The notes: generated by a model not told the origin, from the letters alone. DNA of 54,705 nucleotides from a virus (IMGVR_UViG_3300037842_001004:1-54705), one strand, 5' to 3'; positions 18,859 through 53,119 are shown, counted from the stretch's first letter. Numbers and translations are program-made.

Positions 18859-21800
18859 ATGAGCGACCCCGACTTGCACAAGAGCAACCCGGTCGGGGGC
18901 CACCCGGTCACCGCCGGACCCGTAGCGGGAGCTGGCGACCCCTGGGGCTCGGCTCCCGGTGACGCGCAACTCTTCCCCGCCCTAGCTCCGTTGCCTGACG
19001 CGTACCGCGAGCAGGGACGGAGCATTCTTGCGTCTGGGTCCAGTCTGGCGCTGCGGGCCTACCGCGCCCTACTGGAGCGTGCCGGCGTCGACCGCAGCCG
19101 GGCGAACGTGGCGGTCGAGCTGGCCGCGGGCTACCTCGCGACCCTGGAGGCTCCAACGCGCCTGCGGAAGTCGGCGCTGCGGGACGAGGTGTGGGAGGTC
19201 ATCCCGGGCCGCTTCGCGCGATCCCTCCGCCGCCTCATGTTCAAGGGCGCGGGGCACAAGTACATCCGCCGCGTGCGGCGCAATGGCCGCTGGGTCTACT
19301 ACTACAACGTGACCGGCGGCGCCGGCCTGGGCCACGTCGACGAGATGCACCAGGGCGCCCGCTTCAAGCTCGACCAGGGTGGCAAGTCCGGGCACTACGA
19401 GGTCCTCGCGACGGAGGGCGGGTGGGTCACCATCCGGCACGACGAGAGCGGGCACGAGACCAAGATCCGCAAGACGGCGTTGCAGACGATGCTGCACCGG
19501 GAACACGCCGAGCTTCTGGAGGGTCACCGTGCCCGCACGAGGGCCGAGCTGGAGGCCGTGGGTACGCACGGGTCCACCAAGCAGCGAGAGCGCCTGGAGG
19601 CGTACTCCCGGCGCTACATGCACACCGCCGACCTGATGGATGACCCCGAGCTACGGTTGATGGTCTGGCCGAAGCCGGTGCTCGCGGATTCGCGGACCAC
19701 CTACGGCGCGCGCCTCCGGCCGGTCGGGTCAGCGACGGTGCCTCCGGGCTATACGGCCATCGACTCGCATGGCGATTTCAAGCACGGGACGGTGACCTAC
19801 GAGGCGCCGATCGAGGACCCGAAGCACTACGGCCTCGTCGAGATACCGAGCGCCCGCAGGCGCCTACAAGTCCTGGCCGCGGCCGTTGCCGACCTGAAGG
19901 AGTACGCCGCCGAGCACGTCGAGGAGGCGGCCGACGACCCGGGCTACTTCGAGCAGGTGGTCGGCCACTACATCGACAAGGCCGGCGTCCACATGGACCG
20001 GGCCGAGTTGGCGGCCGACGTCGAGGCGGCCCTGCGGGGCCTTCGCCCGGTCGTCCCCTACGCCGAGATGGCGAAGCCCTGGGAGACCGACGCCGACATC
20101 CTCGCGGAGCACGACATCCACACCTTCGCCGAGGTCGCCGCGGCCGGCGCCGAGAAGGTCGGCCAGCTCCTCGGAGACCCCGCGCGTGGGAAGCGGATCC
20201 ACGGCGACGCGACGATGCGCCTGGGTAGCAAAGACGCGCGGGCAATGGTCCTCGCAGACCACCCGAGCACGCACCCGGACTGGGTCCCTGACCTGTCGAA
20301 GGTCGACTTCTTCATCCTCAACTCCAGCGGCGGCAAAGACAGCGTCGCGATGCTCGCCAGGGCGATCGAGGTCGCGGACCGCCAGGGGTTCCCGCGCGAT
20401 CGGATGGTGGTGGTTCACGCCGACCTGGGGCGCGTCGAGTGGAGCGGCACGAAGGAACTCGCGGCGCAGCAGGCGGCCATGTACGGCGTGCGCTTCGAGG
20501 TGGTCCGGCGGGAGGGGCAAGACCTCCTGCAGCACATCGAGAACCGCTACTACCAACTCGCGGCCCGCATCGAGGACACGGAGGCCCTGTCGGCGCCCCC
20601 CGCCGCGGTGAGTCGCGTGACTCGTGTTGCGGGCCTTCCGCTCGCAGAGGTGGCTACCGCCGACCTTGTGCCCTTGGGCGGAAGGGGGGCGCGGCTGGTT
20701 GAGGCAGCGGCCGGGCGGATGCCGCCGGGAACCCGCCTGCGGACAGCCAACGATCACGAGCTGGTTTTCGAGGACGAGTCCGGCCGCCGTACGACGCTTA
20801 CCCGCATGAGGAATACGCCCACATGGACGGGGGAGGTGACGCGCGCGGTCCATTCCGAGCGCCTCGTGTCGGGGGATCCCTCGATCTCGGGCACTGAGAA
20901 CAGGCGACGGCAGAACAAACGGCGGGAGGTCACGACGGAGCACAAGACGGTTGCTTTCCTGCAGACCGCGCTGAGGGGCAAGCGTTCGGGGTCGCTGACC
21001 GATATGCTCGCGGCGGCCGTCTCTGCCGTCTCTGCCCAGGTGGTCGCCGCGCCTACCCCGCTCACTTGGGGGGACCTCTTCGCGCGCCTGCCCGAGCCGA
21101 AGAAGTCCGGCCGCAAGGCCGAGGTCGCCCGGTTCAAGGCTGAATGGGCGGCCGCCGTCGCGGAGATCGCCGCGAAGTTGCCCGAGCGGAACGTGACCTA
21201 CCCGCCCGGCTTCGAGGACAACCCGAAGCTCCGTCAGACGATGTCGCGCCAGATGCGGGCGGAGCAGATCCTCGCGAGCGCGCGCCGCAAGCAAGGCCAG
21301 AAGGAGCCCGGCGACCCGGTCGACTGGGGCATGCCGAACCCGTGGCCCGGCGACAAGCGGTACTGCACGAGCGAGCACAAGCGCGCGGTGATCGGCGTCC
21401 TGGTGACAAAGGCCGCGGAGAAGATGCACGGCCTTCCAGCTTGGCGCGCCGAGCGCGACGCGACGCGAGCGAAGCGCAAGGCCATCGCGAACGACCGCAT
21501 CAAGGTCGTCGCCAAGGCGAAGGGCCTGAAGGGCGCGCCTCGCGCGGCGGAGAAGGCTCGCATCACGGCGCAGCTCGCCGTGTCCATGCCCGACCCGCCC
21601 GAGCCGCCGGCGCCGCGGATCCTCAACATCATGGGCCTGCGCGCTCAGGAGTCCGAGGAGCGGGCAAAGAAGCCCGCGTTCTACGAAAACAAGGCGTCGT
21701 CGGGGGTGAAGCAGATCGACGACTGGCTCCCGGTCCAGGGATGGAGCGAGGAACAGGTCTGGGACCGCATCGCCCAGGAGGGCATGCCGAGCCACGACGC

Positions 21801-22509
21801 CTACCTACTCGACCCGAAGACGGGGCGGCCGACGGGAAAGGGCATGCGGCGCCTGTCGTGCGTCTTCTGCGTCTACGCCGACTCCCACGACCTCGTCGTC
21901 GCGGCCGTCCGCAACCCCGAGTTGTTCGCGAAGTACCTGGAGCTGGAGGAGCGGACCGGCTTCACCTTCCAGCAATCCAACTTCCCGAAGGGGTCGCCCC
22001 TGGGTCTCGCGGGCAAGCCGAAGAGTCTCCGGGCGGTCGCTGACGCCATCCGCGAGCACGGTGCGACAGAGAGCATCGTCCGCGAGATTTCCGCAGCTCT
22101 ACGGGACATCCAAGATGCGCGGTCGGCCGACCTCGGTCTGGTCCAGATTGGCGACCGGCGCGCAAGCCCTCATGCGCTCGCGAAGGCCGAGGGATCCCTG
22201 GGGGATCCTTCGTTGCACACGTTGGGGTCTGCGTTGCTCCACAACCTTCGCCAGCTCCGCGCCCACGGGAAGCGGCCGGAGTCCATCCAGTACGACTACC
22301 GGGCGAGCGGCGCCGTCGTGATGATCGACTGCGAGGGGGGCGCGTACTTCGTCGGTGCGCTGTCGTACCCGGACGCGTACGGCGGGAGCACGGCCGCAGC
22401 GGCCGCGGCCCGGTTCGCCGGCATCGGGTACGAGGAGCACGGCTCGCCGGACTCGCAGGGGTCGACCAGCGTTCCGGCGCGGGCCGAGCGGGCCAGGAGC
22501 GCACGATGA
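18859..22509 (+). CDS. giant cargo protein 1: shared leader + DarA C-terminal-like domain + PAPS-reductase-like domain with insertions
   Basis: FKGAGHKYIRRVRRNGRWVYYY leader (~19243-19600). YGARLRPVGSATVPPGY...HGTVTYEAP...YGL (DarA_C pattern, ~19699-19845). SSGGKDS, HADLG.VEW, RYCTSEHK, GLRAQES..R, WLPV..W, RLSCVFC. Confidence 0.8.
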   Translation: MSDPDLHKSNPVGGHPVTAGPVAGAGDPWGSAPGDAQLFPALAPLPDAYREQGRSILASGSSLALRAYRALLERAGVDRSRANVAVELAAGYLATLEAPTRLRKSALRDEVWEVIPGRFARSLRRLMFKGAGHKYIRRVRRNGRWVYYYNVTGGAGLGHVDEMHQGARFKLDQGGKSGHYEVLATEGGWVTIRHDESGHETKIRKTALQTMLHREHAELLEGHRARTRAELEAVGTHGSTKQRERLEAYSRRYMHTADLMDDPELRLMVWPKPVLADSRTTYGARLRPVGSATVPPGYTAIDSHGDFKHGTVTYEAPIEDPKHYGLVEIPSARRRLQVLAAAVADLKEYAAEHVEEAADDPGYFEQVVGHYIDKAGVHMDRAELAADVEAALRGLRPVVPYAEMAKPWETDADILAEHDIHTFAEVAAAGAEKVGQLLGDPARGKRIHGDATMRLGSKDARAMVLADHPSTHPDWVPDLSKVDFFILNSSGGKDSVAMLARAIEVADRQGFPRDRMVVVHADLGRVEWSGTKELAAQQAAMYGVRFEVVRREGQDLLQHIENRYYQLAARIEDTEALSAPPAAVSRVTRVAGLPLAEVATADLVPLGGRGARLVEAAAGRMPPGTRLRTANDHELVFEDESGRRTTLTRMRNTPTWTGEVTRAVHSERLVSGDPSISGTENRRRQNKRREVTTEHKTVAFLQTALRGKRSGSLTDMLAAAVSAVSAQVVAAPTPLTWGDLFARLPEPKKSGRKAEVARFKAEWAAAVAEIAAKLPERNVTYPPGFEDNPKLRQTMSRQMRAEQILASARRKQGQKEPGDPVDWGMPNPWPGDKRYCTSEHKRAVIGVLVTKAAEKMHGLPAWRAERDATRAKRKAIANDRIKVVAKAKGLKGAPRAAEKARITAQLAVSMPDPPEPPAPRILNIMGLRAQESEERAKKPAFYENKASSGVKQIDDWLPVQGWSEEQVWDRIAQEGMPSHDAYLLDPKTGRPTGKGMRRLSCVFCVYADSHDLVVAAVRNPELFAKYLELEERTGFTFQQSNFPKGSPLGLAGKPKSLRAVADAIREHGATESIVREISAALRDIQDARSADLGLVQIGDRRASPHALAKAEGSLGDPSLHTLGSALLHNLRQLRAHGKRPESIQYDYRASGAVVMIDCEGGAYFVGALSYPDAYGGSTAAAAAARFAGIGYEEHGSPDSQGSTSVPARAERARSAR

Positions 22510-25500
22510 CCAGGGGACGGCGCGCCCGCGCACGGCAACGACACCTTCGAGAGGCCGAGTGGGTCAAGATCCCGGGCTCGATAGGGTCCGACCTCTTCGA
22601 CCGCCTGGAGAAGGGCGGCGCCCACAAGTACGTGCGACGCGTCCGCCGCGGCCGGCGCTGGGTCTACTACTACGACGTCACGGGCGGCCACGGCATCGGG
22701 CACCACGAAGAGATGCACGCCGGGGCCAAGTTCCGGCTCAAGAGCCGGGGCCACGCGGGCCACTACGAGGTGCTCGAAGTCAACGGTGACGAGGTCGTCA
22801 TCGAGCACGACGAGAGCGGCCACAAGGTCCGCATGAGTAAGGCCGCGCTGGAGAAGATGTTGCTGCGCGAGCACGCGAAGCTCGTCGACTCGCACAAGGC
22901 GCGCACCAGGGCGGAGATGGCCGAGGTCGCGAGGTTCGGGTCCAAGCGCCAGAAGCGCGCGATGCGCGAGTACGTTCGGCGCTACGGGCACACGAGGCCC
23001 CTGCAGACCAACCTTCACGAGCAATACGGGGAGCAGGGCGCGCCGAAGAAGGGCGAGAAGGGGCACGCCGAGCTGAGCCCCGAGAGGCGCGACGCCCTCG
23101 TCCAGGCGGACGCCATCCTCGACCGCGCCCGGCAGGTTTGGGAGGACCCCGACCAGGGTTGGCATGTGGCCTACGCCGCACAGGTCGCACTCGGCGTAGC
23201 CGTGACCGAGGACTGGTTGTCGGAGGACAGCCTTGGGGGCGAAGCCGAACTCGACCCCGAGGACCTCCCGCACCTGCTCGGAGCGAGCCACCTGTCCCCG
23301 CAGGACGCCGCCGAAGCGATCGTGCTCGCGGTCGACGTCAACGAGCGCGTCCCGCGCCCCCTCATGCGGGAGATGCTCGCGGACACGATCGCGCCGGTCG
23401 GCAAGATGCGGCTCGTGAACGTCCCGAAGGCCGAGGCGTTGGAGTTCGTCCAGCAACATCACTCCGAGATGCCCGAGCCGAACCCCCGCGGCCTCATCTA
23501 CGCGATCGGGATCCGCGACGGAGAGCGCCTCGTAGCGGTCGCCACGGCGAGCCACCCGAGCGGGCGATGGGGCTCCGGGCGGACGGACATCCGCAATATC
23601 GTCGAGTTGACGCGGATCGCCTCCGACGGCACCGGCCGCAAGGGCGCAAGCTCGAAGCTCGCAGCGCGGGTGATCGACTTGCTCGACAAGAGCAAGCGGG
23701 GCAACCCGGACGAGCCCGGCCTGTTCGTCACCTACTCGCTCCTGAGCGAGGCTGGCACCACGTACAAGGCGCTGCGCGAGAAGGGTCTGAGGCCCGTCTC
23801 GCTTCGAGAGGGAAAAGAGGGCGGCGGCGGCGGCGCCCGCAAGGGGAACAAACTGGGCTACGCCGCGCCCGACAAAATCCGATGGGAGGCCGGCGACGCG
23901 GCCGGGCCGGCTGACTGGAGCCTGCTCGACCTCGCTGTCGGAGGTGACAAGCACGCCGAGGCGATGGCCGAGCAGGCCAAGCGCGAAGCCGAGCGCCTGG
24001 GGAAGGACCGCGCCGCCGCGAAGGCCGACCTCGCCGCGGCGCTCGCCACGGAAGGGCGGGAGGGAGCCGACGCGACGATGGCGGCAGCGGCTCGCGTCCG
24101 CGCGACCGGCGGGAGCCCCGAGAGCCTGCCAGGGTGGGAGCGGTTCGCCACGCACAGCCCCTGGGGACCCCGTGAGCCCGTCGTCGAGGCGGGCCGGCGT
24201 TACGGCACGGTGCGAGCCGCCGGCGTCGGCGCCGGGCACTCCTGGTACGTCTGGGACGCCAAAGAGAAGAAGGTCGTCGACCACGCGCCCGGGTCCGCCC
24301 ACGCCGCCGACGCCGCCGAGGCCCGAGCCAGCGCCGCGAAGTGGAACGACGCCGCCGGGCGTGGCGCGACCCCGCACGAAGAGGACGCCGCGGAGATGGG
24401 CGCGAAGTGGCGGGCGAAGGCCGTCGGCCTGGAGGACGGGCAGGGTCCCGGGCAACTGGGGAATTGGATCCGGTCGATGCGCGACAACGTGCGCATGCAG
24501 CCGGGCGTCGACATCAGCCAGCACGAGCACACCCGCAGCCGTGCCGCCCTGGCGGCGCTCATCACCGAGCGCACCCGCCGGAAGGACCAGCGATCCATCG
24601 CGAGGCGCGCCGCCCTGGCGAAGAAGCGCGAGAGGTCGCGCGCAGCGCACAACGCGGCCCGACCGCAGGAGGACAAGACCAGGAAGGCCGCAGAGTACGC
24701 CGAGCGGGCCGCGAAGGTCCGGCAGCAACCGCGGGCGCACGACCCCGGCTTTTCGCACTCCCGGTACTTCGCGTCCGGCTCGAACCGGCCCGGGGAGATC
24801 CGGGGGCTCGCAGACGCGGGGCACAACATCGGCGTCGCGATCGACAAGCTCAACGAGGCCGCGGTCGTCGAGATTCAGGGGCTCAAGGGCGAGCAGGTGA
24901 AGGTGTTCGTCGACTCCGGCGCGTTCAGCGAGGTGTTCGTCAACTTCCCGGGGAAGTCCGGCAAGTTGCCCGACCCGGACCGCCCGGTCGGGATCCACAC
25001 CGTCGCGCCGATTTCGGACGAGGTCTGGGCCGAGCGCATCGAGAAGATGGGGCGCCTGACGACGCTCACATGGGACAGGGGGGAGGGGCAGCTCTACCTC
25101 GTCGCGCCCGACAAGGTCGGCGACCAGGACGAGACCCTCCGGCGCCTGGAGAAGTTCGCCGACGATGTCCGTGGGTGGGAGGCCGCGAGCGCAACGGTGC
25201 TCGTGCCCGTCCAGAAGGGCTCGCGGCGGATGGCGGATATGTGGAAGCGGCAGATGGAGATTCTCGGGCCGGGGGATTGGGTCGCCGCGATCCCGATGAA
25301 GAAGGACGCGACGAGCGCCGAGGACCTCCGCGTCTTCCTCACCTCCGCCGACCCGAAGCCGACCCGGCTCCACCTCCTCGGCCTGGGTCTGAACAGCGAC
25401 GCCTATCCGGCGGTCAAGGCCGTACTCGACGAGGTCGGCCCGGAGATTGAGGTCAGCCTGGACAGCAACCGCAAGCGCGCGATCGTCGGGCACTACCAGC

Positions 25501-27293
25501 GCAAGGGCGAGAAGGGGCCGCCGAAGAAGGGGACCGCCGCGTTGCGCGACGCCGAGGCCAAGCTCAAGGGCCGCGCGTTCGAGGACCACGCGGACCCCGA
25601 CATGGCGACGATGTGGTCGGAGGACCGGGAGACCAGGATCGGGGAGTACACGACGCAGAAGTGGCGCAAAGCCATCGCGAAGGAGCACTCCCTGCCCGAC
25701 CGCGCCCTATTCGTCAGCGACCCGGCCGCCTGGATGGGGAAGCCCGCGGACGGAGGTCCGGTCAAGGGGCCTGACGGGTTGTTCCGAGAGGGGCCTGACG
25801 GGCACCCGGTCGAGACCTACGCGGAGCAGCACCCGAGCATCGACGCCGCCCTGCGCGACCAGTACGAGGAATGGTTCACGACCGGCGGCGGGAACACCTA
25901 CTACCGCCAGCGGCGGCAGAACCGAGAGATGATCAAGGACGAGGTCGACCCCCGGGCGCACCGCGACGCGAAGACCAGGGCGAGAGAGGTGAGAGTGGCG
26001 AAGGCCAAGGCCGCAGCGAAGCCCACCAGGAGGCTCGGCGTCTACGGGTGGAGCGACGCAACGAAGGCCGACTCGGCGGGGCTCCACCTCGACCAGGAGA
26101 CGGGTCGCGTGCATCACATCGACTGGGCGCCGAAGCGGATGTCGGCTGATGATGTCGAGGAGTTCAACGCGGCGCCCCGAGCAAAGGCCGCGGCCATGAA
26201 CCGCGTGCTCGAAGCCTACGACGCGGGGACGCGCGAGTTCGGGGACGGTAGCGGCCGCTACGCCGTCGTCATCCCCGACGCGTCAGAGCCTGGACGCTGG
26301 CGCTACAGCGAGTACGACAAGAGCGGGTTTGCCTCGCACCGGACGTTCGACACGCCGCACGAGGCCGCGGCTGCAGCGGCCGACGAGGGGTTCACCGAGG
26401 CCGCGCCCGGGACCCTCGACCAACTCGCCGTGACCGACGAATGGGCCGAGGGGACGCGCGCCGCTCGCGTGATGCAGATCGCGAACTCCGCCGGGGGCCA
26501 CGGCGCGTCCGCGGTGCTCGGTCACTTCGCGCGTAACGGCCGGTCTGCCGCCGCGCTCGCCGCCATCGAGGCCGCGGTGCCCGAGCTGCGCGCGGGGCGC
26601 GTGCCTGCCGCCCTGTTGCCTGCGGCGGCCGAGGCCATCAGCGGACGGCAGCCCGCCAACGAGCACCGGCAACGCTCATTCGTCGACGACGACGGGAAGA
26701 CGCATCACGTCAGCCCATCGGACGAGCAGATCGGCCTGATGGCGCAACGCGCCCACGGCACGCTCAACCCGCTTGTCGAGCGGTGGGTGGTGCTCAACGA
26801 GAAGGGATCGAAGACGAAGGTGCTCGACGCCTACGACGCGCTCCCGCCCGTCGAGAAGGCCGCGCTCGCCTTCCAGGTCGAGGACCTCGTCGGGGGCGAC
26901 GGCTACATCACCGCGTACCGGACGCTCAACCGCGGCGACGACCCGAAGCAGATGGGCGGCGCGTCGGTCTCGACGAACCCGAAGTGGAAGGACAAGGACA
27001 ACGCTCACGCGTTCCGCGTCCACCACAGCGACATCCTGCTCACGCACGAGCAACACGAGAGCGGCGCCGGCGCCAACGCCGTCGGCTCCGCCCTGGGCCG
27101 AAGCAAGGGGTTCGGGGGGTACGGGAGCGAACAGGAGGTGATCCTCAAGCGCACCGCCCAGGTCGAGCACCTGGGGCTCGCGAAGCCGCCACCGGCCCCC
27201 GCCCTCCTCCCGAACGATAGGAACGCGTCGACCAAGCCGACCAGCTCCGCGGTGCAACAGAGCCTCGGAGGCGAGGACTGGCTTGCAAGGTGA
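22506..27293 (+). CDS. giant cargo protein 2: shared leader + Mom/XF1762-like GNAT + TGT/DpdA-like + ADP-ribosyltransferase-like
   Basis: LEKGGAHKYVRR leader (~22611-22965). EALEFVQQHH...VELTRIASDG...ASSKL...VTYSLLSEAGTTYKA...KIRWE (~23406-23888). VFVDSGAFS...APDKVGD...PVQKG...LHLLGLG...SLDS (~24763-25480). AYR...SVSTN...EQEVIL (~26905-27150). Confidence 0.75.
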   Translation: MTRGRRARARQRHLREAEWVKIPGSIGSDLFDRLEKGGAHKYVRRVRRGRRWVYYYDVTGGHGIGHHEEMHAGAKFRLKSRGHAGHYEVLEVNGDEVVIEHDESGHKVRMSKAALEKMLLREHAKLVDSHKARTRAEMAEVARFGSKRQKRAMREYVRRYGHTRPLQTNLHEQYGEQGAPKKGEKGHAELSPERRDALVQADAILDRARQVWEDPDQGWHVAYAAQVALGVAVTEDWLSEDSLGGEAELDPEDLPHLLGASHLSPQDAAEAIVLAVDVNERVPRPLMREMLADTIAPVGKMRLVNVPKAEALEFVQQHHSEMPEPNPRGLIYAIGIRDGERLVAVATASHPSGRWGSGRTDIRNIVELTRIASDGTGRKGASSKLAARVIDLLDKSKRGNPDEPGLFVTYSLLSEAGTTYKALREKGLRPVSLREGKEGGGGGARKGNKLGYAAPDKIRWEAGDAAGPADWSLLDLAVGGDKHAEAMAEQAKREAERLGKDRAAAKADLAAALATEGREGADATMAAAARVRATGGSPESLPGWERFATHSPWGPREPVVEAGRRYGTVRAAGVGAGHSWYVWDAKEKKVVDHAPGSAHAADAAEARASAAKWNDAAGRGATPHEEDAAEMGAKWRAKAVGLEDGQGPGQLGNWIRSMRDNVRMQPGVDISQHEHTRSRAALAALITERTRRKDQRSIARRAALAKKRERSRAAHNAARPQEDKTRKAAEYAERAAKVRQQPRAHDPGFSHSRYFASGSNRPGEIRGLADAGHNIGVAIDKLNEAAVVEIQGLKGEQVKVFVDSGAFSEVFVNFPGKSGKLPDPDRPVGIHTVAPISDEVWAERIEKMGRLTTLTWDRGEGQLYLVAPDKVGDQDETLRRLEKFADDVRGWEAASATVLVPVQKGSRRMADMWKRQMEILGPGDWVAAIPMKKDATSAEDLRVFLTSADPKPTRLHLLGLGLNSDAYPAVKAVLDEVGPEIEVSLDSNRKRAIVGHYQRKGEKGPPKKGTAALRDAEAKLKGRAFEDHADPDMATMWSEDRETRIGEYTTQKWRKAIAKEHSLPDRALFVSDPAAWMGKPADGGPVKGPDGLFREGPDGHPVETYAEQHPSIDAALRDQYEEWFTTGGGNTYYRQRRQNREMIKDEVDPRAHRDAKTRAREVRVAKAKAAAKPTRRLGVYGWSDATKADSAGLHLDQETGRVHHIDWAPKRMSADDVEEFNAAPRAKAAAMNRVLEAYDAGTREFGDGSGRYAVVIPDASEPGRWRYSEYDKSGFASHRTFDTPHEAAAAAADEGFTEAAPGTLDQLAVTDEWAEGTRAARVMQIANSAGGHGASAVLGHFARNGRSAAALAAIEAAVPELRAGRVPAALLPAAAEAISGRQPANEHRQRSFVDDDGKTHHVSPSDEQIGLMAQRAHGTLNPLVERWVVLNEKGSKTKVLDAYDALPPVEKAALAFQVEDLVGGDGYITAYRTLNRGDDPKQMGGASVSTNPKWKDKDNAHAFRVHHSDILLTHEQHESGAGANAVGSALGRSKGFGGYGSEQEVILKRTAQVEHLGLAKPPPAPALLPNDRNASTKPTSSAVQQSLGGEDWLAR

Positions 27294-27689: not shown

Positions 27690-27725
27690 AGCATGGACAG
27701 CATGGACAGCATGGACAGCATGGAC
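27690..27725 (+). repeat. 9-bp tandem repeat (AGCATGGAC)x4
   Basis: Read directly; encodes MDSMDSMDSMD. Confidence 0.9.
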
Positions 27726-30700
27726 GCTCGATCGAGCCGAGCGCGCGGACGGGCAGGGTCCGTGCGAGACCGGGGCGATAAGGCGCGCGAGCGGCTTCTC
27801 AAGTCCGGCGAGCGAGCCGGTCACAAGTACCTGTACCGGGTCAAACACGGCCGCGGCTGGCGCTACGTCTACAAGGATGATGTGGCGCACCACGCCCGAC
27901 CCATCTCGGACCGCGAGCGTTGGCGCCGCGACAGGTCACCGAAGGCGGACCAGGAGACGGCGCACAGGGTCGCGGCGCACGGTATTGTGCCGCACGCCGG
28001 CGTGCTGCGAGACGACGAGGTCCACGGCGCGTCGAGGGTCCTGGGCGGACACCGGGTCGACGAGAGCCGACTCAACTCAGCCGGTGTGCCGATCAAGGTC
28101 CCGAACCACAATCCGCACGACGAGTGGAACCGACATCGAGAGATTCTCGCCGCCCGGATCGGCGTTGTGGGCGACAGCATCGCCCACAACGAGAGTCGGC
28201 TCTCGACCTGGACGAACGGCACGGGCGAGGGCGTCACCTCCGCGGCCGAGCTGGTCGAGTTGGCGGGTGCGGCTGAGAGCGGGTTCAAGGACGTGATGCA
28301 CGCCGCCTGCGGCGCCGTCGCCGGTGCGACGACCTTCTACGGCGAGAAGAAGGACAAGGACGGGAAGGTCACGGGCGACTACGCCATCAAGGGCGCGAAG
28401 CGTCTAGGCGAGAAGGTCGAGGCGTGGGCGAAGGACGACGTCGAGCAGGGCCGGATGAGCAACATCGAGGGCGCACGCCTCCGTGTGCTCCGCAACGAAG
28501 TCAGCGACTGCTTGCGCGGCTCGATCCTCGTCGACCACCCGGAGCAGATCGGCCACGCCGTCGCGGCGCTTCGCGAGCACGCGAGGGCCGTTGGAGCTGA
28601 CATTACGGTCGAGAACAAGTGGGGCAACGAACACAAGGGCGCCTATCTGGCGGTGCATGCCCGGATGCTCATGCCGTCCCCAAAGGGGATGATCCGAACC
28701 GAGGTGCAGATCCACCCGAAGGCGCTCATCGAGCCCAAGGAGGAGATGCACAAGGTCTACGACGTGACGCGCAAGCCGGGCTTCGACAAGGCGAAGGACA
28801 AGGACGCCTACAACGCGAGCAGCAAACTCGTTTGGACGGCCGGCATGCGTCGACTGAACGAGGACCGCGGGCACGGGCAACTGACGGACCAAACGTCGCC
28901 GCATGCCTCACCCGAGGTTCACGAAGAGGCCGCACGGGCGCACGAGGGCGTAGCCAGGATGCACGAGGTCCGTGGCGCCCAGGCGGTCGGGGTGGCACGG
29001 GGTGGCGAGAAGGCAACGGACAGGCACGCGCGCTTCGCGAACGCCGCCCGATCGATGGCCCGAGCGCACCGCGTCCAAGCCTCCGCGAAGCGCGGTATCC
29101 GTCCGTTGGACGTCGGGGAGACTCACCAGCACCTCAGTTCGGACGAGCACGACAAACTCGCAGGGCTTCACGAGATGTCGGCCGTCGAGGACGAGCACGG
29201 TGCCTGGGGCATGAAGCACGGCGTGGACCGCGAGGTGGCCCTGAACCGCGCCGCTGTGTCCCGCCTCACAGCCGTCGGCCATCAGCAGGCAGCCCGGAAT
29301 GTTCGCATTGCCGCGATGGCCCGGCCGCTCCTGAAGGCCGAGGACCTTGAGAAGGGTCGGATGCGCGGGGGTAAGTACCTCAAGAAGCGTTGGACCGGCT
29401 CCCGTTGGGCCTACACCTACCCGGACGACGTCCACCCGGGGAAGCAGCGTCGCGCCATCATGGAGGACTTGGAGCACCACGTCCGACACGGCCACCTGCA
29501 CTCCGAGACGATCGCCGACCACGGGACCCGCCTCGGGGAGCTGGACAAGAAGGTCCGCGTCCGAGCGGCCGTCCGAGCTGGCGCCGATGCGTCCGAACTG
29601 GCTGCGATGAGTTGGGACGACCGCGAGGCGGCGATCGCCGCGAAGGTCGGTGAGCGCCCCTGGCGACGGAGCGCGGGGAAGGGGAAGACCGGGCGCGTGG
29701 GGTCGCAGGACCCGATGACCGGCACCTCGCTCGGGCAGTCCAGGGCGAACAAGGCACGGGCGAAGGCGGCCCACGTCGGCTCTGTCGGCGCTCAGGCCAA
29801 CCCACCGCGGCTGCACCCGGCCGCGACGGCATCGCGTGCGCAACAACTCGCGACGCACTCGGCCGCGGTCCACATCGAGACGCACCGGAACCCGCCCGAG
29901 GGCGGCGACCGGTACTCGGCCGTGCGGACCAAGTTGCACCAGGAGGCCATCAGCGCCCACACCGAGGGGAAAACGAAGGGGCACGACCGGCCGCACGCGA
30001 TCGTGATGATGGGCGGGCCAGGGTCCGGCAAGGGGACCGTCCTCAAGAAGATCATGGGGAAGGGTGCGATGGACAACTACGTCCACGTCGACCCCGACGA
30101 GATGAAGCAGCGCGTGCCCGAGTACCAGATCGCGCGTGCCCGGAACGCCAAGGACGCGGCGTCGGTGGGTCACGAAGAGTCGTCGCACATGGCGGTGAAG
30201 CTCCACCAGCACGCCGTCGCAGCTCGACACAACATCCTGCTCGACGGCACCGGGAAGAACGCGAAGAAGCACATCGCGAAGATCAAGGCCCTGAAGGCGG
30301 CCGGCTACCACGTCACCGTCATCAGCCCGCACATCGGGGTCGAGGAGGGCGTGGCGCGCGTCTCCCAACGTGCGGACCGGTCTGGTCGCTTCGTCCCGAC
30401 CGACGTCGTGCGCGGGGCGTACGGCAAGATCCCGGGCAACTTCCACGACGTGGCCGCGCACGCCGACGACGCGATGTTGATCGACAACCACAACGGCCCG
30501 CGCGTCATGTGGCACAAAGACGAAGACGGCGAGCACGTCAGCCACGCCGACCACTACTCCCGCTTCCGCGAGGACGCGGCGGAGTCGAGGAAGGGGCAGG
30601 GGAAGGACGCACGCGAGGCGACGGCCGCGGCGTCGGCCGCGTCTGCCGACTCCGACCAGGGCCACCTGCAGGCCCACCTTCGTCACCGTCGCCTGTCGAG

Positions 30701-31244
30701 CGCGGCGACGTCCGCCGGCAACGAGGGCCTCGCCGCGCAACACAAGGCCGCAAGCCGAGCCCACCTGGAGGCCGCGCAATCACCCACGGCGGAGGGCCGC
30801 ACCCGCGCAGCGTCCGTCGCTGCGCTACACGAGCACGCCACGACCCACCCGGGGCACGACCAGAGCATCGAGTGGCACCACAAGCAGGCCGGGTTGGTAC
30901 ATCGGGCCGTGATGGCCGGCGCAGGGCATCGCGTCACGCCGGATATGCGAGAGGCCGGGAAGCACTCGCCAACGTCCCCGACAAAGCCAGATCCAGCCGA
31001 GGCACACGAGCAGGCGGCCGCGGGCCACGATCGCGTGGCCGCCGGGCACGAGCACGCCACCGGGCAGCGTCACGCGGACGCCCAGGGGAACACCGTTCCG
31101 CCCGACGCGCACAAGGCGGCGGCGAAGGCCCACCGGTCGGCAGCGCAGGCCCACCGCGACGGCCGCGGGGACGCGCAGGCGTTGACCTACAAGGCCGACG
31201 ACGCATCAACCCGAGCCCATGGCTGGAACACACGAGGCGCTTGA
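27693..31244 (+). CDS. giant cargo protein 3: two short leaders, RelA/SpoT-like nucleotidyltransferase + zeta-toxin kinase + His/Ala repeats
   Basis: LLKSG...HKYLYRVK...WRYVY. IKGAKRLGEK...SDCLRGSI...YLAVH...TEVQIH...HKVYD (~28385-28770). LEKG...KYLKKRWTGSRWAYTY. MGGPGSGKG...VDPDEMK...HEESS...NILLDGT...GRFVP (~29994-30510). Confidence 0.85.
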   Translation: MDSMDSMDSMDARSSRARGRAGSVRDRGDKARERLLKSGERAGHKYLYRVKHGRGWRYVYKDDVAHHARPISDRERWRRDRSPKADQETAHRVAAHGIVPHAGVLRDDEVHGASRVLGGHRVDESRLNSAGVPIKVPNHNPHDEWNRHREILAARIGVVGDSIAHNESRLSTWTNGTGEGVTSAAELVELAGAAESGFKDVMHAACGAVAGATTFYGEKKDKDGKVTGDYAIKGAKRLGEKVEAWAKDDVEQGRMSNIEGARLRVLRNEVSDCLRGSILVDHPEQIGHAVAALREHARAVGADITVENKWGNEHKGAYLAVHARMLMPSPKGMIRTEVQIHPKALIEPKEEMHKVYDVTRKPGFDKAKDKDAYNASSKLVWTAGMRRLNEDRGHGQLTDQTSPHASPEVHEEAARAHEGVARMHEVRGAQAVGVARGGEKATDRHARFANAARSMARAHRVQASAKRGIRPLDVGETHQHLSSDEHDKLAGLHEMSAVEDEHGAWGMKHGVDREVALNRAAVSRLTAVGHQQAARNVRIAAMARPLLKAEDLEKGRMRGGKYLKKRWTGSRWAYTYPDDVHPGKQRRAIMEDLEHHVRHGHLHSETIADHGTRLGELDKKVRVRAAVRAGADASELAAMSWDDREAAIAAKVGERPWRRSAGKGKTGRVGSQDPMTGTSLGQSRANKARAKAAHVGSVGAQANPPRLHPAATASRAQQLATHSAAVHIETHRNPPEGGDRYSAVRTKLHQEAISAHTEGKTKGHDRPHAIVMMGGPGSGKGTVLKKIMGKGAMDNYVHVDPDEMKQRVPEYQIARARNAKDAASVGHEESSHMAVKLHQHAVAARHNILLDGTGKNAKKHIAKIKALKAAGYHVTVISPHIGVEEGVARVSQRADRSGRFVPTDVVRGAYGKIPGNFHDVAAHADDAMLIDNHNGPRVMWHKDEDGEHVSHADHYSRFREDAAESRKGQGKDAREATAAASAASADSDQGHLQAHLRHRRLSSAATSAGNEGLAAQHKAASRAHLEAAQSPTAEGRTRAASVAALHEHATTHPGHDQSIEWHHKQAGLVHRAVMAGAGHRVTPDMREAGKHSPTSPTKPDPAEAHEQAAAGHDRVAAGHEHATGQRHADAQGNTVPPDAHKAAAKAHRSAAQAHRDGRGDAQALTYKADDASTRAHGWNTRGA

Positions 31245-42000: not shown

Positions 42001-43039
42001 GGCAAGCGGCCTCGTCATCGGGAAGAACTTCCGCAGCGCGGCCGAGGCGAAGACCGCCGCGATGATGTTGCACCACGCCGCGGGCGAGGGCGGCATTCAC
42101 GACGACGCGAGGAGGGCCGCGGAACAGCTCGGCCCCCACGCGGCCGCGCTCGGGGCTCACCAGAAGGACGGAACGCTCGAAGAGGGCATGCGGCAGGCCC
42201 GCGAGGCGAAGAAGACCGCTAACTCCAATGCGGCCGCGAAGAAGGGCCTGGACAAGATCGCCAGCCTCGGGAGCCACCAACCCGAGAAGGTCACGCACTC
42301 CACAAGCGACGAGGCCCACGCGAAGGCCAAGGGCTCGAAGCGGGCCTCGTCGTTCGCTGCGTCCCCGTCGGAGTATCGCCCAGGCATGAGCCAGTATCTG
42401 GTGAAGGACGGCCGGGCGGTCTCGACCGACGGCAAGCGCGCGGCGAGTATCCCCGTCGCGGGCCACGACGACGGCCACTACGCGAGCCACAACCCGTCCG
42501 CACTGTACGACCGCCACGGCGGCGCGAAGCAGGGCGAGCGGTCCGACATCACGAAGGACGGGGACAAGTCGTTCTTTCACGACCCGCTCACCAGCGCCGT
42601 TCACGATTTCGTCGATCCGGCCACCTACCCGCACAAGGCGAGCCTTGACGCGTCGCAACTGAGGACAGCCCTGGACGGATCGAAGTTCCTCGCCAAAGGC
42701 GCGGAACACCGCGTGTCCCTGGAGAGCAAAGACGGCGCGATGACGATGCACGTCACAGGCAACGCCGACCACCCGACGCACGCGGGCCAGAAGGTCAGCG
42801 TGCCCCTGGGTGAGCACGAGGGACCCGACTTCGCGATGGACGTCCAACACAAGTTCCTGAGCGACGCCATGAAGGGCGCGAAGGGGACCGTGCAGCTCGG
42901 ACTGAAGGCGGGCCGCAAGGGCGGGCGCAAGTCCACGACCGACACGAAGCAGGGCAAGGGGAAGCAACCCGACACGGGGATCCTGCACGTCGCGCGGTCC
43001 GACGGTGAGAACCACGCCATCGCGTCGTTCAGGGACTGA
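39086..43039 (+). CDS. giant cargo protein 5: shared leader + His/Ala repeats + DNA polymerase III beta-clamp-like C-terminus
   Basis: LEKGAGHKYMRK leader (~39248-39640). VKDGRAVSTDGKRA...YP...MDVQHKFLSDAMK...HAIASFR (~42394-43036). True start may be the ATG at 39152. Confidence 0.75.
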   Translation: MLSWGTALDGRQGVVFTLHTNDMAKGFDGGPVRMVELPTLIGVLLSNSLELRLEKGAGHKYMRKVWTGSRWRYFYSVSGGAGLGHHDEFHEGAKFKLAHGGKAGHFEVTGKTDDGKLKIKHDESGHEEHLHPDALKEMLHREHADALDGHTKKIAQDLKDVAKHGSDKQKARLQAEAGKYGHTEHLTDAGKAKAKAGAGAGGEAEGGGKGDKDKEAAARKKEQVAAVWGDKSGRDAADREAKAAAKTRSGKGIPAHTNEHGDHDKDKVGEATKDWSASDHDDAAAHHDKAARESDEKSGLEGEDYDKHQKDYNAHLDAAGQHEDAAEAKHADALEADDASKGKVREVAKVMNEGAARIQGIAAKGFDREREVGDHAVYRSKDGAISFTAKKDASPSDVAHAFVDEMVRRQLETTAGDHKMTDGEQKTARAVLRRTLDVSKIVGALGPIGHAKPEAKPKSPLAAKAAAEDAHATKESARHEAKAKEHQTAADDLDRGVESRGIHQVAATQHRGAAAAHERLSDSADSRSRIADGHSEQAGAHDAKADEKKERETGPGRGKKGTFGDEKKPGKGMSADEFADNVSDIGTSSAERAAKAKGRAAGKADAKVAVAAAKQKSGDESTAAVATDKTEFGQGKREDNATREAASNHHGQEGNKHLKAAKAADAAGDHDLRDAHVAAGKAHVLARKSGGYHRAMADAATKAISDAQARALKPDADEKKERETGPGKGKKGTFGDDDAGQSPAHAKWEAQYRKYKEGSGSYPKSRGRAGVDKAAMDAITAKVDAEHDETRRQESTGKAEGHNAEVERHEKAASFHRDAAKKELGFNAATAHKDAEGAHDTAAHHHRGASESWKAHAMGQPGRGAPARSTTAATESARADKASERSRRLAKPEPEPKAAAPAAKPEAAPGEMPTSVGDMKAEHIAQLRGTGDWTKGGVNRTNKDGSNSDTQGEVGHGMNVFKEQGAFLIGHEASGLVIGKNFRSAAEAKTAAMMLHHAAGEGGIHDDARRAAEQLGPHAAALGAHQKDGTLEEGMRQAREAKKTANSNAAAKKGLDKIASLGSHQPEKVTHSTSDEAHAKAKGSKRASSFAASPSEYRPGMSQYLVKDGRAVSTDGKRAASIPVAGHDDGHYASHNPSALYDRHGGAKQGERSDITKDGDKSFFHDPLTSAVHDFVDPATYPHKASLDASQLRTALDGSKFLAKGAEHRVSLESKDGAMTMHVTGNADHPTHAGQKVSVPLGEHEGPDFAMDVQHKFLSDAMKGAKGTVQLGLKAGRKGGRKSTTDTKQGKGKQPDTGILHVARSDGENHAIASFRD

Positions 43040-49895: not shown

Positions 49896-49918
49896 CTGCG
49901 TTTTGGCCCTGGAGTTTT

Positions 49919-50743
49919 GTGAGCCAACCGGTCCCCGCCCTCGAAGTCATCCACGATTGGATGCCGGTCGAGATCATCGAGAAGGCTGACGCGCCCGATG
50001 GGCAACGTCTGCGCTTCCGCGGGATTATGTCGACCGAGCACGAGGACCTCCAAGGCGACACGGTCGACCAGGGCGGCATGGACTACGCCCCCCTCCTGGC
50101 GCGCGGCTGGCTCAACGACAACCACAGCAAGACGACCGGTGACGAGCTGGGCCTCATCACGAAGGCCGAGCCGGTGACCATCGACAAGGTCCGCGCCACG
50201 GCCGTCGAGGGCGTCCTCTTCGACACCCCGCAGAACCGGAAGATCGCCGCGAACGCGCGATCGATGCGGCGCCTGGGGCGCGGCTACGGCTTCAGCGTCG
50301 AGGGCAAGATCCTTCAGCGGTCCGGTCCGCGCGGGAAGCGGGTGGCCCGGTCCATCGTCTCGCAGCTCGCCCTGACCCGCTGCCCGGTGAACACCCAGAC
50401 GAAGATGGAACTGCTCCACAAGTCGCTCGACACCCTGCAGAAGGCCATGACGGTCGGCTACGGGCTCGCGACTCCCGGTGCGACCGTCGCGTCTCTGGCC
50501 CCCGTGGTGCCCTTCGACCTCGAAGGCGACAACGAGGACCACGTCCAGTTCTTCAACGGAGCGCCGTTCGACTGGGACACGTTCCGCAAGACCTGGGACA
50601 CCGGGGCAGCACGCGACGCCGCGGGCGCACGCCCCGGTAACCGGACCCTGACGAAGGCTCAAGCCGCGATGCACGCGCTGCGCCGCCGTCCCGACCTGAA
50701 CATTCACCAGCTCCGCGCGCTGCTTCTGCAGGCGCAGGCTTAG
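49919..50743 (+). CDS. prohead (maturation) protease, HK97/Herelleviridae-like
   Basis: FRGIMSTEHEDLQGD...GWLNDNH...GFSVEG...ALTRCPVN. Confidence 0.9.
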   Translation: MSQPVPALEVIHDWMPVEIIEKADAPDGQRLRFRGIMSTEHEDLQGDTVDQGGMDYAPLLARGWLNDNHSKTTGDELGLITKAEPVTIDKVRATAVEGVLFDTPQNRKIAANARSMRRLGRGYGFSVEGKILQRSGPRGKRVARSIVSQLALTRCPVNTQTKMELLHKSLDTLQKAMTVGYGLATPGATVASLAPVVPFDLEGDNEDHVQFFNGAPFDWDTFRKTWDTGAARDAAGARPGNRTLTKAQAAMHALRRRPDLNIHQLRALLLQAQA

Positions 50744-50752
50744 GAGGATTCG

Positions 50753-51550
50753 ATGTCCGCGCTTCCGTACCTGACGAAGATGGCAAAGGGCGGCGACGCC
50801 GAGGCGCTCGACGCGTTGCGCAAGATGCGTGACGACGGCGACGACGACGCGGCCGACGCGCTCAACAGCATGGGTGACGGCAACGGCGCCCAACCGGACA
50901 TGCCCCTCGGCAAGTCCAGCCAGGGCGAGATGTTCGACCTTGAGGCTCTGGAGAAGGCCCTCGACGACATCGAGCCGTTCAGCGACGTCGAGAACGCGCC
51001 CGCGGCGACCGTCGACGACATCCGCAACGACATCAGCGGCCGCCCCGAGGTCGAGGCCGCGGCCGCGGTCGACGCCGGCGACTTCGTGAAGTCCCTCGCG
51101 TCGGGCATCGAGTCCGCGTTGGAGCGCAACGGCGACGTCGCAGCCTGGGCCGCCCAGGCGGCCGAGGCTGTCGCCCAGGGCTTCGGCGCGCAGGGTGACT
51201 TGCTGAAGTCGGTCACCGACTCCAACGACCGCCTGTCGAAGTCGATCGACGCGCTGAAGGAGACCCTCTCGGGCCTCGGCGCCGGCACGGTCGGCGCGAC
51301 CGACACGGTCCAGGCCGCGGCCCTCGCCAAGAGCTTCGCCGGCCCCTCCGACGAGCCCGTCCCGCAGCCCGGTCCGAGCGGCCGGTCCGTGGGCGAGGAG
51401 GCGCAGGAGTTGCGCAAGTCGCTCCGCGATCGGCGCGAGGGCCTCGACCCGAGCGAACGGCCGATGTTGGGCAAGATCAACAACGCGCTCGACGCGTTGA
51501 CGCACATGGACCTCAACCCCGCACGAAAGTTGCTCGCCGCGAACGGCTAG
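50753..51550 (+). CDS. capsid scaffold protein
   Basis: Acidic, helical, between protease and capsid; repeated LxK[S/A] (LGKS, LEKA, FVKS, LLKS, LSKS, LAKS, LRKS). Confidence 0.75.
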   Translation: MSALPYLTKMAKGGDAEALDALRKMRDDGDDDAADALNSMGDGNGAQPDMPLGKSSQGEMFDLEALEKALDDIEPFSDVENAPAATVDDIRNDISGRPEVEAAAAVDAGDFVKSLASGIESALERNGDVAAWAAQAAEAVAQGFGAQGDLLKSVTDSNDRLSKSIDALKETLSGLGAGTVGATDTVQAAALAKSFAGPSDEPVPQPGPSGRSVGEEAQELRKSLRDRREGLDPSERPMLGKINNALDALTHMDLNPARKLLAANG

Positions 51551-51604
51551 TCAGCAAGCGAACAGATCACCGCCCACGGGCGCGAACGAAAAGGAGCGAA
51601 CATC

Positions 51605-53119
51605 ATGTTCGACGGAATCGGAGACGGAGCCTTCGCCGGCGGCGGTGACGTGGGGGGAGTCCTCGCGGAACTGCTCGGTTTTCAGGGGGTCGGCGACCTC
51701 CTGAAGGCGATGTCAGTCGGGGACGTGTTCCCCGCGGCCCCGGGTGACCTCACCCCGGGCAAGCTCATGGCGACCGTGCCCCAGGACCTGGACGACGTGT
51801 TGCACAACACGGCGTTCAACTCGAAGCACATCCTGGGCTTCAACAAGGTCTCCAAGGGCAAGGCGTGGAGCACCGTCCACCAGTTCGTGCGGCACCACTC
51901 GCCCGGCTCGGCCGGACGGCGGTTCCTGTTCCACCGGGAGGGCGGATTGCCGCCCGAGTCGGACAGCACGTTCTCGCTGGAGCAACTCAAGATGCGCTAC
52001 CTGGGGTCGGTCCGCCGACTCCCGATCCAGGCGCGCCTCGTCAAGAACATCGTTCCTGGCGGAGCCGTAAAAAAGCAGAATGCGGACGGCTCGCTCGAAC
52101 TGCTCGAAGCAGCCGAGTTCGCGATGTTCTACGGCGACAACTCGATCAACCCCTACGCGTTCGACGGCCTCAAGCCGATCATGGAGCGTGAGGGACTGGT
52201 GCTCGACGCCGCCGGACAGACCCCGACCGAGGCCCTGATCGACGAGGCGATGGAGATCGCCTGCGAGAAGCCGAATTGGGGTCACCCGACCGACCTCTTC
52301 TGCTCCCCGCGGATGCACAAGACGTTGCGCCAGCTCTACGCCGGCCGCATGCGCTCGATGCTCGGTGACCGGTTCCACCCCAACTACCGCCTCTCGGAGA
52401 TGGGCTTCGACCACAACAACGAGGGCGAGAACGTCAACATCATCAAGCACCCGCTGGTGATCGAGGAGTCTCCGAAGGCGTCCCCTCTGGGTGAGGGTCC
52501 CGACGCGAGTCGGCGTCCCGTGTCTCCGATCATCGTGGCGCAGCCCGCGCCAAACGTGGACACGACCTCGAAGTTCGGCGTCGGCGCCGGCCGTCCCATC
52601 GGGGACGTGAAGTATCAGGTCGCGGCCATCAACGAGGCGGGCGTCTCCGCCCCGGTGGCGACCAACACGATCGCGACCGAGGCCGGCAAGGACATCCGCC
52701 TCACCGTCAAGGACGGCGCGGTCCCGAACAGCCTGCAGTCGGCCACCGGCTTCCTGCTCTACCGGACCGAGGCCGGCGTCACCACCGCATCGGAGGCGAC
52801 GCTCATCAAGGAGCTAGGCGCTCCGGCCAACGGCGCGAACCTCGTCATCATCGACCTCAACGAGGACCTCCCGGGGACCTCGGAGATGTTCATCGTGACG
52901 AACCGGAAGGAGAGCATCGAGATGATGCAACTCCTGCCGATGTTCAACTTCCCCCTGGGGAACCTGGACACCTCGTTCCGCTGGGCGCTGCTCCTGTTCG
53001 TCGCCCTCAAGATCGGCACCCCGCGGCAGCACGTCTTGATCAAGAATGTGAAGCCCGAGTCCGGCCTGGAGAAGATCGTGGTCCCGGGTGACCAGAGCGC
53101 CCCGCAGCTCCACATCTAG
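51605..53119 (+). CDS. major capsid protein (SPO1/Herelleviridae-like)
   Basis: LLKAMS...QDLD...AWSTVHQF...EGGLP...EFAMFYGD...FDGL...WGHPTDLF...YQVAAINEAGVSAP...LPG...QLLPM. Confidence 0.9.
   Translation: MFDGIGDGAFAGGGDVGGVLAELLGFQGVGDLLKAMSVGDVFPAAPGDLTPGKLMATVPQDLDDVLHNTAFNSKHILGFNKVSKGKAWSTVHQFVRHHSPGSAGRRFLFHREGGLPPESDSTFSLEQLKMRYLGSVRRLPIQARLVKNIVPGGAVKKQNADGSLELLEAAEFAMFYGDNSINPYAFDGLKPIMEREGLVLDAAGQTPTEALIDEAMEIACEKPNWGHPTDLFCSPRMHKTLRQLYAGRMRSMLGDRFHPNYRLSEMGFDHNNEGENVNIIKHPLVIEESPKASPLGEGPDASRRPVSPIIVAQPAPNVDTTSKFGVGAGRPIGDVKYQVAAINEAGVSAPVATNTIATEAGKDIRLTVKDGAVPNSLQSATGFLLYRTEAGVTTASEATLIKELGAPANGANLVIIDLNEDLPGTSEMFIVTNRKESIEMMQLLPMFNFPLGNLDTSFRWALLLFVALKIGTPRQHVLIKNVKPESGLEKIVVPGDQSAPQLHI

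Follow-up and report, generated by a model that had tools for sequence, protein, structure and literature searches.

Within a 54.7-kb viral record (IMGVR_UViG_3300037842_001004, the whole of which is called the window below; 69% G+C, an estimated ~40% complete, with genes on the + strand), we identified a four-residue lysine motif, hydrophobic-x-Lys followed by Ser, Ala or Gly, that is concentrated in the scaffold, the prohead protease and a minor head protein, and that stands just before a conserved leader peptide in five giant cargo proteins, here named PV1 to PV5. On sequence homology, the window is best explained as the head module of a phage not yet cultured, which encodes a portal resembling those of Herelleviridae, an HK97-type (S78-like) prohead serine protease, a scaffold and a capsid protein. 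From the statistics, conservation and positions of the motif, the homology of the protease and the predicted flexibility of the site, we infer that the giant proteins are packaged, cleaved and ejected, and that they carry a targeting element. We consider it probable that the motif is where the S78-type protease cleaves, on the C-terminal side of its Lys, that the giants are polyproteins in which a helix ahead of the leader is an excised propeptide, and that most of the pieces start GAGHKY. An initial annotation of the window had proposed that the motif links the cargo proteins to the protease; this can be upheld as a signature common to substrates of the protease lineage, kept before the leader in 197 of 198 copies, but not for the cargo bodies, in which the motif is at chance level.

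The lysine motif in head proteins of the window and of other phages

The head proteins concerned are listed below, with positions in amino acids (aa) and nucleotides (nt).

49919..50743, + strand: prohead maturation protease, 274 aa; phrog_1028 'head maturation protease', E 9.9e-22; motifs IEKA20, ITKA80, LHKS166, LQKA173 and LTKA244
50753..51550, + strand: scaffold, 265 aa, between the protease and major capsid protein genes; weak match to phrog_673, E 0.49
51605..53119, + strand: major capsid protein (MCP), 504 aa, Herelleviridae type; phrog_752, E 1.7e-56; LLKA at aa 32-35 (nt 51698-51709)
35181..36926, + strand: portal, 581 aa; PF04860, phrog_2662/12; LVKA at aa 22 (nt 35244-35255) and MIKS at aa 565 (nt 36873-36884)
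37830..39092, + strand: MuF/gp7-like minor head protein, 420 aa; LKKS at aa 384 (nt 38979-38990)

We counted the motif as [LFMIV]xK[SAG], with significance assessed by 5000 residue shuffles per protein. The scaffold contains 8 motifs against 0.98 expected, a count reached by 0 of the 5000 shuffles; 11 of its 13 lysines follow hydrophobic-x, 8 of these in full motifs, and the seven first reported are recovered if MAKG is excluded. The protease is similarly rich (5 motifs against 0.72 expected, P 0.0004), with ITKA80 to be added to the IEKA, LHKS, LQKA and LTKA already described, as is the MuF-like protein (4 against 0.44, P 0.0004), in which 4 of the 7 lysines fall in the motif; across these three proteins the enrichment is 7-9 fold. 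PV1 (8 against 3.41, P 0.020) and PV4 (7 against 3.38, P 0.045) are marginally enriched, and no significant enrichment over the shuffles was found in PV2 (7 against 5.19), PV3 (5 against 3.85), PV5 (4 against 6.49), the portal (2 against 1.51), the MCP (2 against 1.85) or the large terminase TerL (1 against 1.37). The suggested check, enrichment over background in head-module proteins, is thus borne out for the scaffold, protease and MuF-like protein, but not for the portal, MCP, PV2, PV3 and PV5, which are at expectation. The enrichment is real for the former three; in the capsid, portal and cargo proteins the signal is one of position, not of density, and the LLKA of the capsid N-terminus and the LVKA and MIKS of the portal ends are present where they had been placed.

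The signal is specific to Lys. With Lys replaced by Arg in the pattern, the scaffold has 0 matches against 0.98 expected and the protease a weak excess (4 against 1.38, P 0.04). With Lys replaced by Glu, the scaffold has 0 against 1.33 and the protease 0 against 0.72, indicating that a T4-type hydrophobic-x-Glu-small pattern is not enriched.

The window protease aligns with SPO1 gp3.2 (BLASTP, E 1e-15 over aa 20-181), and three of its motifs align with motifs of the SPO1 protein (IEKA20 with ILKS15, LHKS166 with VVKS156, and LQKA173 with LDKS167). SPO1 gp3.2 and the proteases of Listeria phage LP-064 and Staphylococcus phage 812 pass the Peptidase_S78 model at 23.7, 23.4 and 26.7 bits, respectively (cut-off 21), and a protease 45% identical to that of the window, from the uncultured relative L040, reaches 15.1 bits. 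The window protease itself reaches no Pfam model, and its assignment as a distant HK97-type (S78) prohead protease is by transitive homology. Five homologues of 22-45% identity all keep H69 (NDNH) and S126 (GFSVEG), which are presumably catalytic. A comparison of the protease with the sequences of solved structures returned nothing meaningful (E 0.26).

The motif pattern recurs in four uncultured relatives (L040 to L043), whose proteases are 22-45% identical to that of the window over the alignment, and in which the order of the protease, scaffold and MCP genes is the same. Their scaffolds contain 8-10 motifs against 0.84-1.52 expected and their proteases 4-8 against <1, and their capsid sites lie at aa 21-53; the remaining open reading frames (ORFs) are near expectation, the strongest being one of 139 aa with 1 motif against 0.03 (P 0.027). 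The L040 capsid reads ELLK/SMSVG at the position matching the LLKA of the window, a slash here and below marking the predicted cut. We found comparable distributions, as counts against expectation, in four cultured phages:

SPO1: scaffold 11 against 1.33, protease 8 against 1.61, capsid N-terminus ALNK/A
Staphylococcus 812: scaffold 7 against 1.32, protease 6 against 1.60, capsid N-terminus DVVK/S
Thermus Cumys: scaffold 6 against 1.03, protease 4 against 0.99, capsid N-terminus AFAK/A
Listeria LP-064: scaffold 3 against 1.55 (not significant), protease 4 against 1.18, capsid N-terminus DALK/S

In SPO1 the portal N-terminus contains a further two sites, and each of five downstream genes contains 0-1. 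All 12 distinct portal homologues have a site ahead of the conserved core, and 8 of them have one in their final ~30 aa. The LLKA of the window MCP sits in an N-terminal stretch that is not alignable to SPO1, the match to SPO1 gp6.1 (BLASTP, E 5e-32) running from aa 60 on. In Cps of LP-064, an A511-like phage, the Lys of DALK/SFTTG is residue 24; the capsid proteins of A511 and HK97 are said to be cut at a Lys-Ser bond. Our literature search found nothing stating a Lys-specific motif for Herelleviridae-type proteases. Taken across these phages, the distribution supports the motif as a putative shared signature of the substrates of this protease lineage, covering the scaffold, the protease tail, the capsid N-terminus and the portal ends.

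For the MuF-like protein we obtained only weak PHROG matches, to head-morphogenesis and minor-head families (E 0.004-0.02), and no Pfam match. Its LKKS384 lies just past a conserved C-x-x-C...H-P-H-C-R-C region, and its homologues likewise have HPNCRC and a motif site after the domain; the common H-P-x-C-R-C is presumably a MuF marker.

Three side observations concern these proteins. The protease tail of L041 (record G002), LRK/SMTAVAPTPNTAEGAGAAIQTESL, is nearly the same as the new N-terminus of its capsid, VLK/SITAVAPTPNTASGAGAAIQVESL, each following a motif Lys; possibly the L041 protease contains a duplicated capsid N-arm. The portal tail of the window (nt 36700-36860) is rich in Gly, Glu and Asp directly before MIKS565. 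The MuF-like proteins of two relatives, L019 and L030, continue past the domain into a long C-terminal extension, with an IEKA motif at the junction in L019.

The leader module and the sites around it

The leader, HKY..RWxYxY, belongs to an unannotated module of ~150 residues, which we refer to, together with the helix and the motif sites ahead of it, as the cassette. It occurs in the giant proteins as follows, matches being to a hidden Markov model (HMM) of the core module.

18742..22509, + strand: PV1, giant cargo protein, 1255 aa as the longest ORF; PAPS-reductase PF01507, E 2.8e-8, phrog_424; cassette with LRKS at aa 141 (nt 19162-19173), helix, MFKG at aa 166 (nt 19237-19248), HKY at nt 19255 and module end at ~nt 19641; core-module HMM E 1.3e-50
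22506..27293, + strand: PV2, giant cargo protein, 1595 aa; N-terminal cassette with LEKG at aa 34 (nt 22605-22616), module nt 22551-23009; core-module HMM E 3.0e-47
27693..31244, + strand: PV3, giant cargo protein, 1183 aa; Zeta-toxin/P-loop kinase PF06414, E 4.6e-32; two short hairpin-only leaders, one after LLKS at aa 35 (nt 27795-27806), one after LLKA at aa 546 and LEKG at aa 552 (nt 29328-29357)
31870..35184, + strand: PV4, polyvalent protein, 1104 aa; InPase at aa 50-172, PF18823, E 4.6e-34; cassette with LRKA at aa 188 (nt 32431-32442), helix, LTKG at aa 210 (nt 32497-32508) and module to nt 32919
39086..43039, + strand: PV5, giant cargo protein, 1317 aa; cassette with MAKG at aa 23 (nt 39152-39163), helix, LEKG at aa 53 (nt 39242-39253), module nt 39188-39646; core-module HMM E 8.6e-54

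All six leaders in the five giants have an [L/M]xK[G/S] tetrapeptide 2-5 residues before H/G-K-Y, and the individual tetrapeptides of the initial annotation (MFKG, LEKG, LLKS, LLKA/LEKG, LTKG and LEKG) are all there. A word-based search with PV5 aa 45-190 recovered 17 proteins, in which 20 of 20 leader copies follow L/M-x-K-G/A. A profile search with the module across 1.84 billion cluster representatives recovered 720 proteins at E<=0.001, 605 of them at E<=1e-10, which are up to 3608 residues long and have up to 4 matched stretches each. Neither set was seeded with a KG..HKY pattern, the profile behind the 720 representatives including the site columns.

Conservation of the site was tested with an HMM built from HKY onward only, and because the model begins there the site played no part in detection. 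Among 198 full copies in 154 proteins, hydrophobic-x-Lys-[SAG] lies just upstream in exact register in 184, against 0.45% expected per position, and is displaced by 1-8 residues in 13; one copy reads LMKH. Although these proteins are rich in Arg, all 184 in-register copies have Lys at P1 and none has Arg. P3 is Leu (136), Val (23), Ile (18), Met (6) or Phe (4), P2 is free, with at least ten residue types, and P1' over the 198 copies is Gly (134), Ala (51) or Ser (3). The classes at P3, P1 and P1' are the same as those of 44 scaffold sites. Short hairpin-only forms, including both PV3 leaders, have the site upstream in 5 of 5 cases. Among leader-bearing viral records longer than 50 kb, 9 of 10 encode a homologue of the protease, the tenth being a 61%-complete fragment.

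We noted that the conserved unit does not begin at the leader, but ~25 residues before the Lys, with a helix of the form E-L-P-x-x-L-G-x-x-L-W. The earlier statement that the released pieces start at the HKY leader is refined: the position of the site fits a GAGHKY start, and the conserved helix, which precedes the site, would be cut off. New here is a second hydrophobic-x-K-small motif that, with the first, brackets the helix: it is present 26-50 residues before HKY in 77 of the 117 internal copies, the expected share being 10.7%, with the excess peaking at -40 to -33; in an earlier, smaller set it was present in 24 of 41 copies. In a further 81 copies, which are N-terminal, HKY falls at residue 16-50. 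The site pairs of the window are:

PV1: LRKS141 and MFKG166
PV4: LRKA188 and LTKG210
PV5: MAKG23 and LEKG53
PV2: copy N-terminal

Of the motifs that had been read as marking cargo boundaries, LRKS141 of PV1 and LRKA188 of PV4 survive as the upstream edge of the bracketed helix. LHKS45, LRKS11, LAKA1146 and MTKA1095 are unsupported as boundaries, since the motif is at chance level in the cargo bodies. LHKS45 may also fall outside PV1, as the database gene call (P0008, 1172 aa) starts downstream of it, 83 codons after the start of the longest ORF. Enrichment at all cargo domain boundaries was considered and rejected.

The predicted structures place both sites in flexible segments. An AlphaFold model of the PV5 module (mean predicted local distance difference test, pLDDT, 82.7) runs from a helix (residues 5-16) through a hairpin (28-41) and a beta-barrel (60-96) to two long helices, with LEKGAGH at pLDDT<50 between the helix and the hairpin. 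In the model of PV4 aa 156-350 (pLDDT 78.1), the two cassette segments below 50 are L-R-K and L-T-K-G-K-A-H, which flank a confidently predicted helix. The modelled barrel resembles Tudor/SH3-like domains at middling scores only, the best VIA-align match being to a Tudor domain (Z 6.5, root-mean-square deviation 2.2 over 58 residues), followed by CarD (Z 5.5), with none at Z>=8. A Foldseek search of the module against the PDB returned nothing at E<=0.001 (best E 0.24).

The module is absent from Pfam at E<=5, its only PHROG match at E<=1 is phrog_6659 of unknown function (E 0.17), and the ESM Atlas gave no usable match. A genome scan for the module recovered 2 loci only, one of which, L053, lies in a 3.5-Mb metagenome-assembled chromosome labelled Myxococcales; it is possibly a prophage, and gives a weak host hint that fits the 69% G+C of the window.

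Proposed processing, alternatives and known systems

In the mechanism we favour, the protease would cut after Lys in hydrophobic-x-Lys before Gly, Ala or Ser. It would trim its own N-terminus and C-terminal tail, dice the scaffold into pieces of 11-45 residues if every site were used, remove ~34 N-terminal residues from the capsid protein, and cut the portal at both ends, with the MuF-like protein and the five giants, each bearing one or two cassette copies, as further substrates. The full cassette would consist of an optional upstream site, 8-12 residues, the amphipathic helix, 6-8 residues and L-x-K/G-A-G, followed by the HKY..RWxYxY beta-hairpin, which is basic and aromatic, and, after a small beta-barrel of Tudor/SH3-like type, by two long helices. 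The procapsid would take in the uncut giants, the protease would cut either side of the helix, and a peptide of ~25-40 residues would be lost in the manner of a propeptide; the freed enzyme pieces, mostly starting GAGHKY, would stay trapped in the shell until ejected with the DNA.

Several results weigh against this proposal. The cargo bodies outside the cassettes, across the 154 proteins, contain 621 motifs against 576 expected (ratio 1.08). Leaders favour Gly at P1' and the window scaffold favours Ser. LxKG lies inside a conserved module, and its conservation could reflect common descent or a binding role; the compared copies are related, and the P values therefore overstate their independence. 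One set of viral loci was seeded with the KG..HKY pattern and is therefore biased for the proximal site. The module has 0 matches in 50,697 phage records, and no cultured phage among them carries it. The window protease matches no Pfam family even at E<=5, below the Peptidase_S78 (PF04586) cut-off, and the LP-064 scaffold enrichment has a P of 0.22. Finally, PV4 contains HELAH (HExxH) at aa 841-845 (nt 34390-34404), which suggests a zincin-type metallopeptidase inside PV4 and with it the possibility of self-processing for that protein.

One alternative, which we hold to be unlikely while taking it seriously, is that LxK[G/A] before HKY is an uncut folded or binding surface (a portal, scaffold or DNA contact), the giants remaining whole and the sites in the head proteins being real. 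This would account for a tetrapeptide within a module conserved on both sides, for the Gly of the leaders against the Ser of the scaffold, and for the lack of enrichment in cargo bodies, and it has a precedent in the virion RNA polymerase of N4, packaged yet unprocessed (Iyer 2017, PMC5512222). It accords poorly with a site that falls in a linker of pLDDT<50 in two models, with the 13 copies that retain the motif despite a shift of 1-8 residues in its spacing to HKY, and with a free P2 next to a Lys never swapped for Arg; and it leaves unexplained the second site bracketing the helix in most internal copies.

It is improbable that the giants are instead split by a host protease or by metallopeptidase domains that they themselves carry, with the likeness to the scaffold motif a coincidence. 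The MPTase domain has been proposed as a processing device of polyvalent proteins (Iyer 2017, PMC5512222), and the HELAH of PV4 could serve as one. It is, however, the sole HExxH outside the module, with none in PV1, PV3 or PV5 and the HEEMH of PV2 lying inside the module, and PV4 aa 744-943 match no Pfam peptidase. Coincidence is also hard to reconcile with leader motif classes equal to those of the 44 scaffold sites, and with the co-occurrence of the protease in nine of ten records.

A covalent role for the invariant Lys, as in an isopeptide cross-link or another modification without proteolysis, we regard as very improbable. HK97-type capsids use Lys cross-links, and a Lys without Arg substitution would also suit chemistry at an epsilon-amino group. 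Yet 8-11 such lysines occur in scaffolds that must leave the capsid, others in the capsid N-terminal stretch where Herelleviridae are reportedly cut, and a conserved partner residue is absent. Chance occurrence of a loose four-residue pattern, of which 3-6 copies are expected per giant and in which PV2, PV3 and PV5 are not enriched, has next to no probability given the shuffles of the scaffold, the register of the leaders and the replication of the pattern in eight other phages; it is ruled out for the scaffold, protease and leader sites, and still stands for isolated sites in cargo bodies.

Returning to cleavage after Lys, the bracketed helix fits an excised propeptide comparable to the capsid-targeting sequences of T4, in which the gp21 motif is L/I-x-Glu. 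The T4 internal proteins (IPI-III and Alt) have a short N-terminal peptide that targets them to the prohead and is removed by gp21, the proteins being injected with the DNA, and the motif at which it is removed is abundant in the scaffold core and the capsid N-terminus as well (PMC9024508, PMC10052503). The 81 N-terminal copies of the cassette, with a site 16-50 residues from the start, are placed as T4-type removal would have them. In contrast, the T4 protease is of another family and cuts after Glu, and its signal is of ~10 residues and N-terminal only, whereas here we predict a Lys cut in a ~150-residue cassette with a retained hairpin and barrel, a two-site bracket, and further positions inside polyproteins. 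The cassette may thus work like the T4 targeting system without being a member of it, the protease being of SPO1/HK97 type and the Glu motif not enriched.

HK97 gp4 (MEROPS S78/PF04586) and the Herelleviridae proteases are of the same lineage as the window protease by transitive homology, and their known cuts are said to fall at Lys before a small residue. To our knowledge, HK97 and Herelleviridae phages do not carry cargo polyproteins. In phiKZ (gp175) and SPN3US (gp245), numerous head and ejection proteins are processed by a single protease that recognises three residues, and propeptides with several sites each are cleared (PMC10052503). These phages differ in using small-x-Glu as the motif and in having N-terminal propeptides of 20-254 residues, and they are not known to have a shared cassette or multi-enzyme polyprotein. 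We rejected Felix O1 as a comparison, its protease being of the S49 family and its capsid unprocessed (PMC3185647).

The polyvalent proteins, for which packaging and injection are predicted, are giants that combine several enzymes and have their genes among those of the head (Iyer, Burroughs, Anand, de Souza and Aravind 2017, PMC5512222). The giants of the window are like them in the InPase of PV4 and its near-threshold C-terminal LPD1 (PF18796, 26.6 bits, slightly below the 27-bit cut-off), both domains having been defined for polyvalent proteins of phages, in the Zeta-toxin kinase of PV3, and in their location among portal, terminase and head genes. Each of PV1 and PV3 has a single named domain (PAPS reductase and Zeta toxin, respectively) in more than 1100 aa, and PV2 and PV5 have none, no family match being found for either in Pfam and PHROG profile searches. 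Processing of polyvalent proteins has been assigned to an in-built MPTase, rarely to a C-terminally fused assemblin-like peptidase (PMC5512222), and built-in peptidases are the sole published proposal that we found for splitting them; the passages of that paper covered here name neither a cut-site motif nor a shared targeting cassette. Our literature search found nothing linking polyvalent proteins to prohead-protease sites. In phage P1, the first 30 residues of DarB (250 kDa, anti-restriction) are enough for a reporter to be packaged in the capsid; no consensus emerged among the Dar proteins, no link to protease sites was drawn, and excision of the signal is not reported (PMC9024508).

The one-protease mechanism, with one four-residue site and one 150-residue cassette, offers a testable alternative to built-in peptidases. 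If it is true, the mature virion proteome of a whole clade of uncultured phages becomes predictable from sequence, the targeting-and-trimming logic of T4 reaches the HK97/Herelleviridae protease lineage, and the cassette is a candidate tag for loading foreign proteins into capsids. More tentatively, and as a possibility that we would not favour over its negation, the cassette could be a portable load-and-release device, in which the ~30-residue bracketed helix is the true capsid-targeting signal, excised once it has docked on the shell, the scaffold or the protease, and the HKY hairpin and Tudor-like barrel, retained on every released piece, bind DNA or the portal and so carry the enzyme along when the genome leaves. 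Phages of this clade could then assemble the set of enzymes that they inject by inserting the cassette between any enzymes.

Other features of the window

The genes for PV1 to PV5 all lie between the terminase and the protease (which starts at 49919), flanking the portal and MuF-like genes.

12990-15242, + strand: large terminase (TerL), identified by profile searches

The longest terminase ORF has a Cys/Arg-rich extension of 34 codons (12990-13091) ahead of its first Met codon, and the true start is probably the Met at 13092. The start of the PV3 ORF (27693-27725) reads MDSMDSMDSMD, a tandem repeat of three residues, and its start codon is uncertain. The MuF-like stop overlaps the PV5 start codon by 7 bases (39086-39092), which suggests coupled translation. 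Within PV5, around 40700-41250, two near-identical stretches (..ADEKKERETGPG[R/K]GKKGTFGD..) lie ~160 residues apart, within a low-complexity middle part of the protein rich in Lys, Ala and Glu.

A search of viral contigs with the capsid protein found no close relative. The MCP matches 742 phage records, all at <60% identity and mostly Herelleviridae of Staphylococcus, Bacillus, Enterococcus and Listeria, and the portal shows the same pattern of matches, so that the label "Herelleviridae-type" holds for the head genes. The MCP, portal and protease are 26-30% identical to their SPO1 counterparts. The gene following the MCP (53179-53538) encodes a protein of 119 aa, most of which is a PEPEPAPEP repeat with a basic end.

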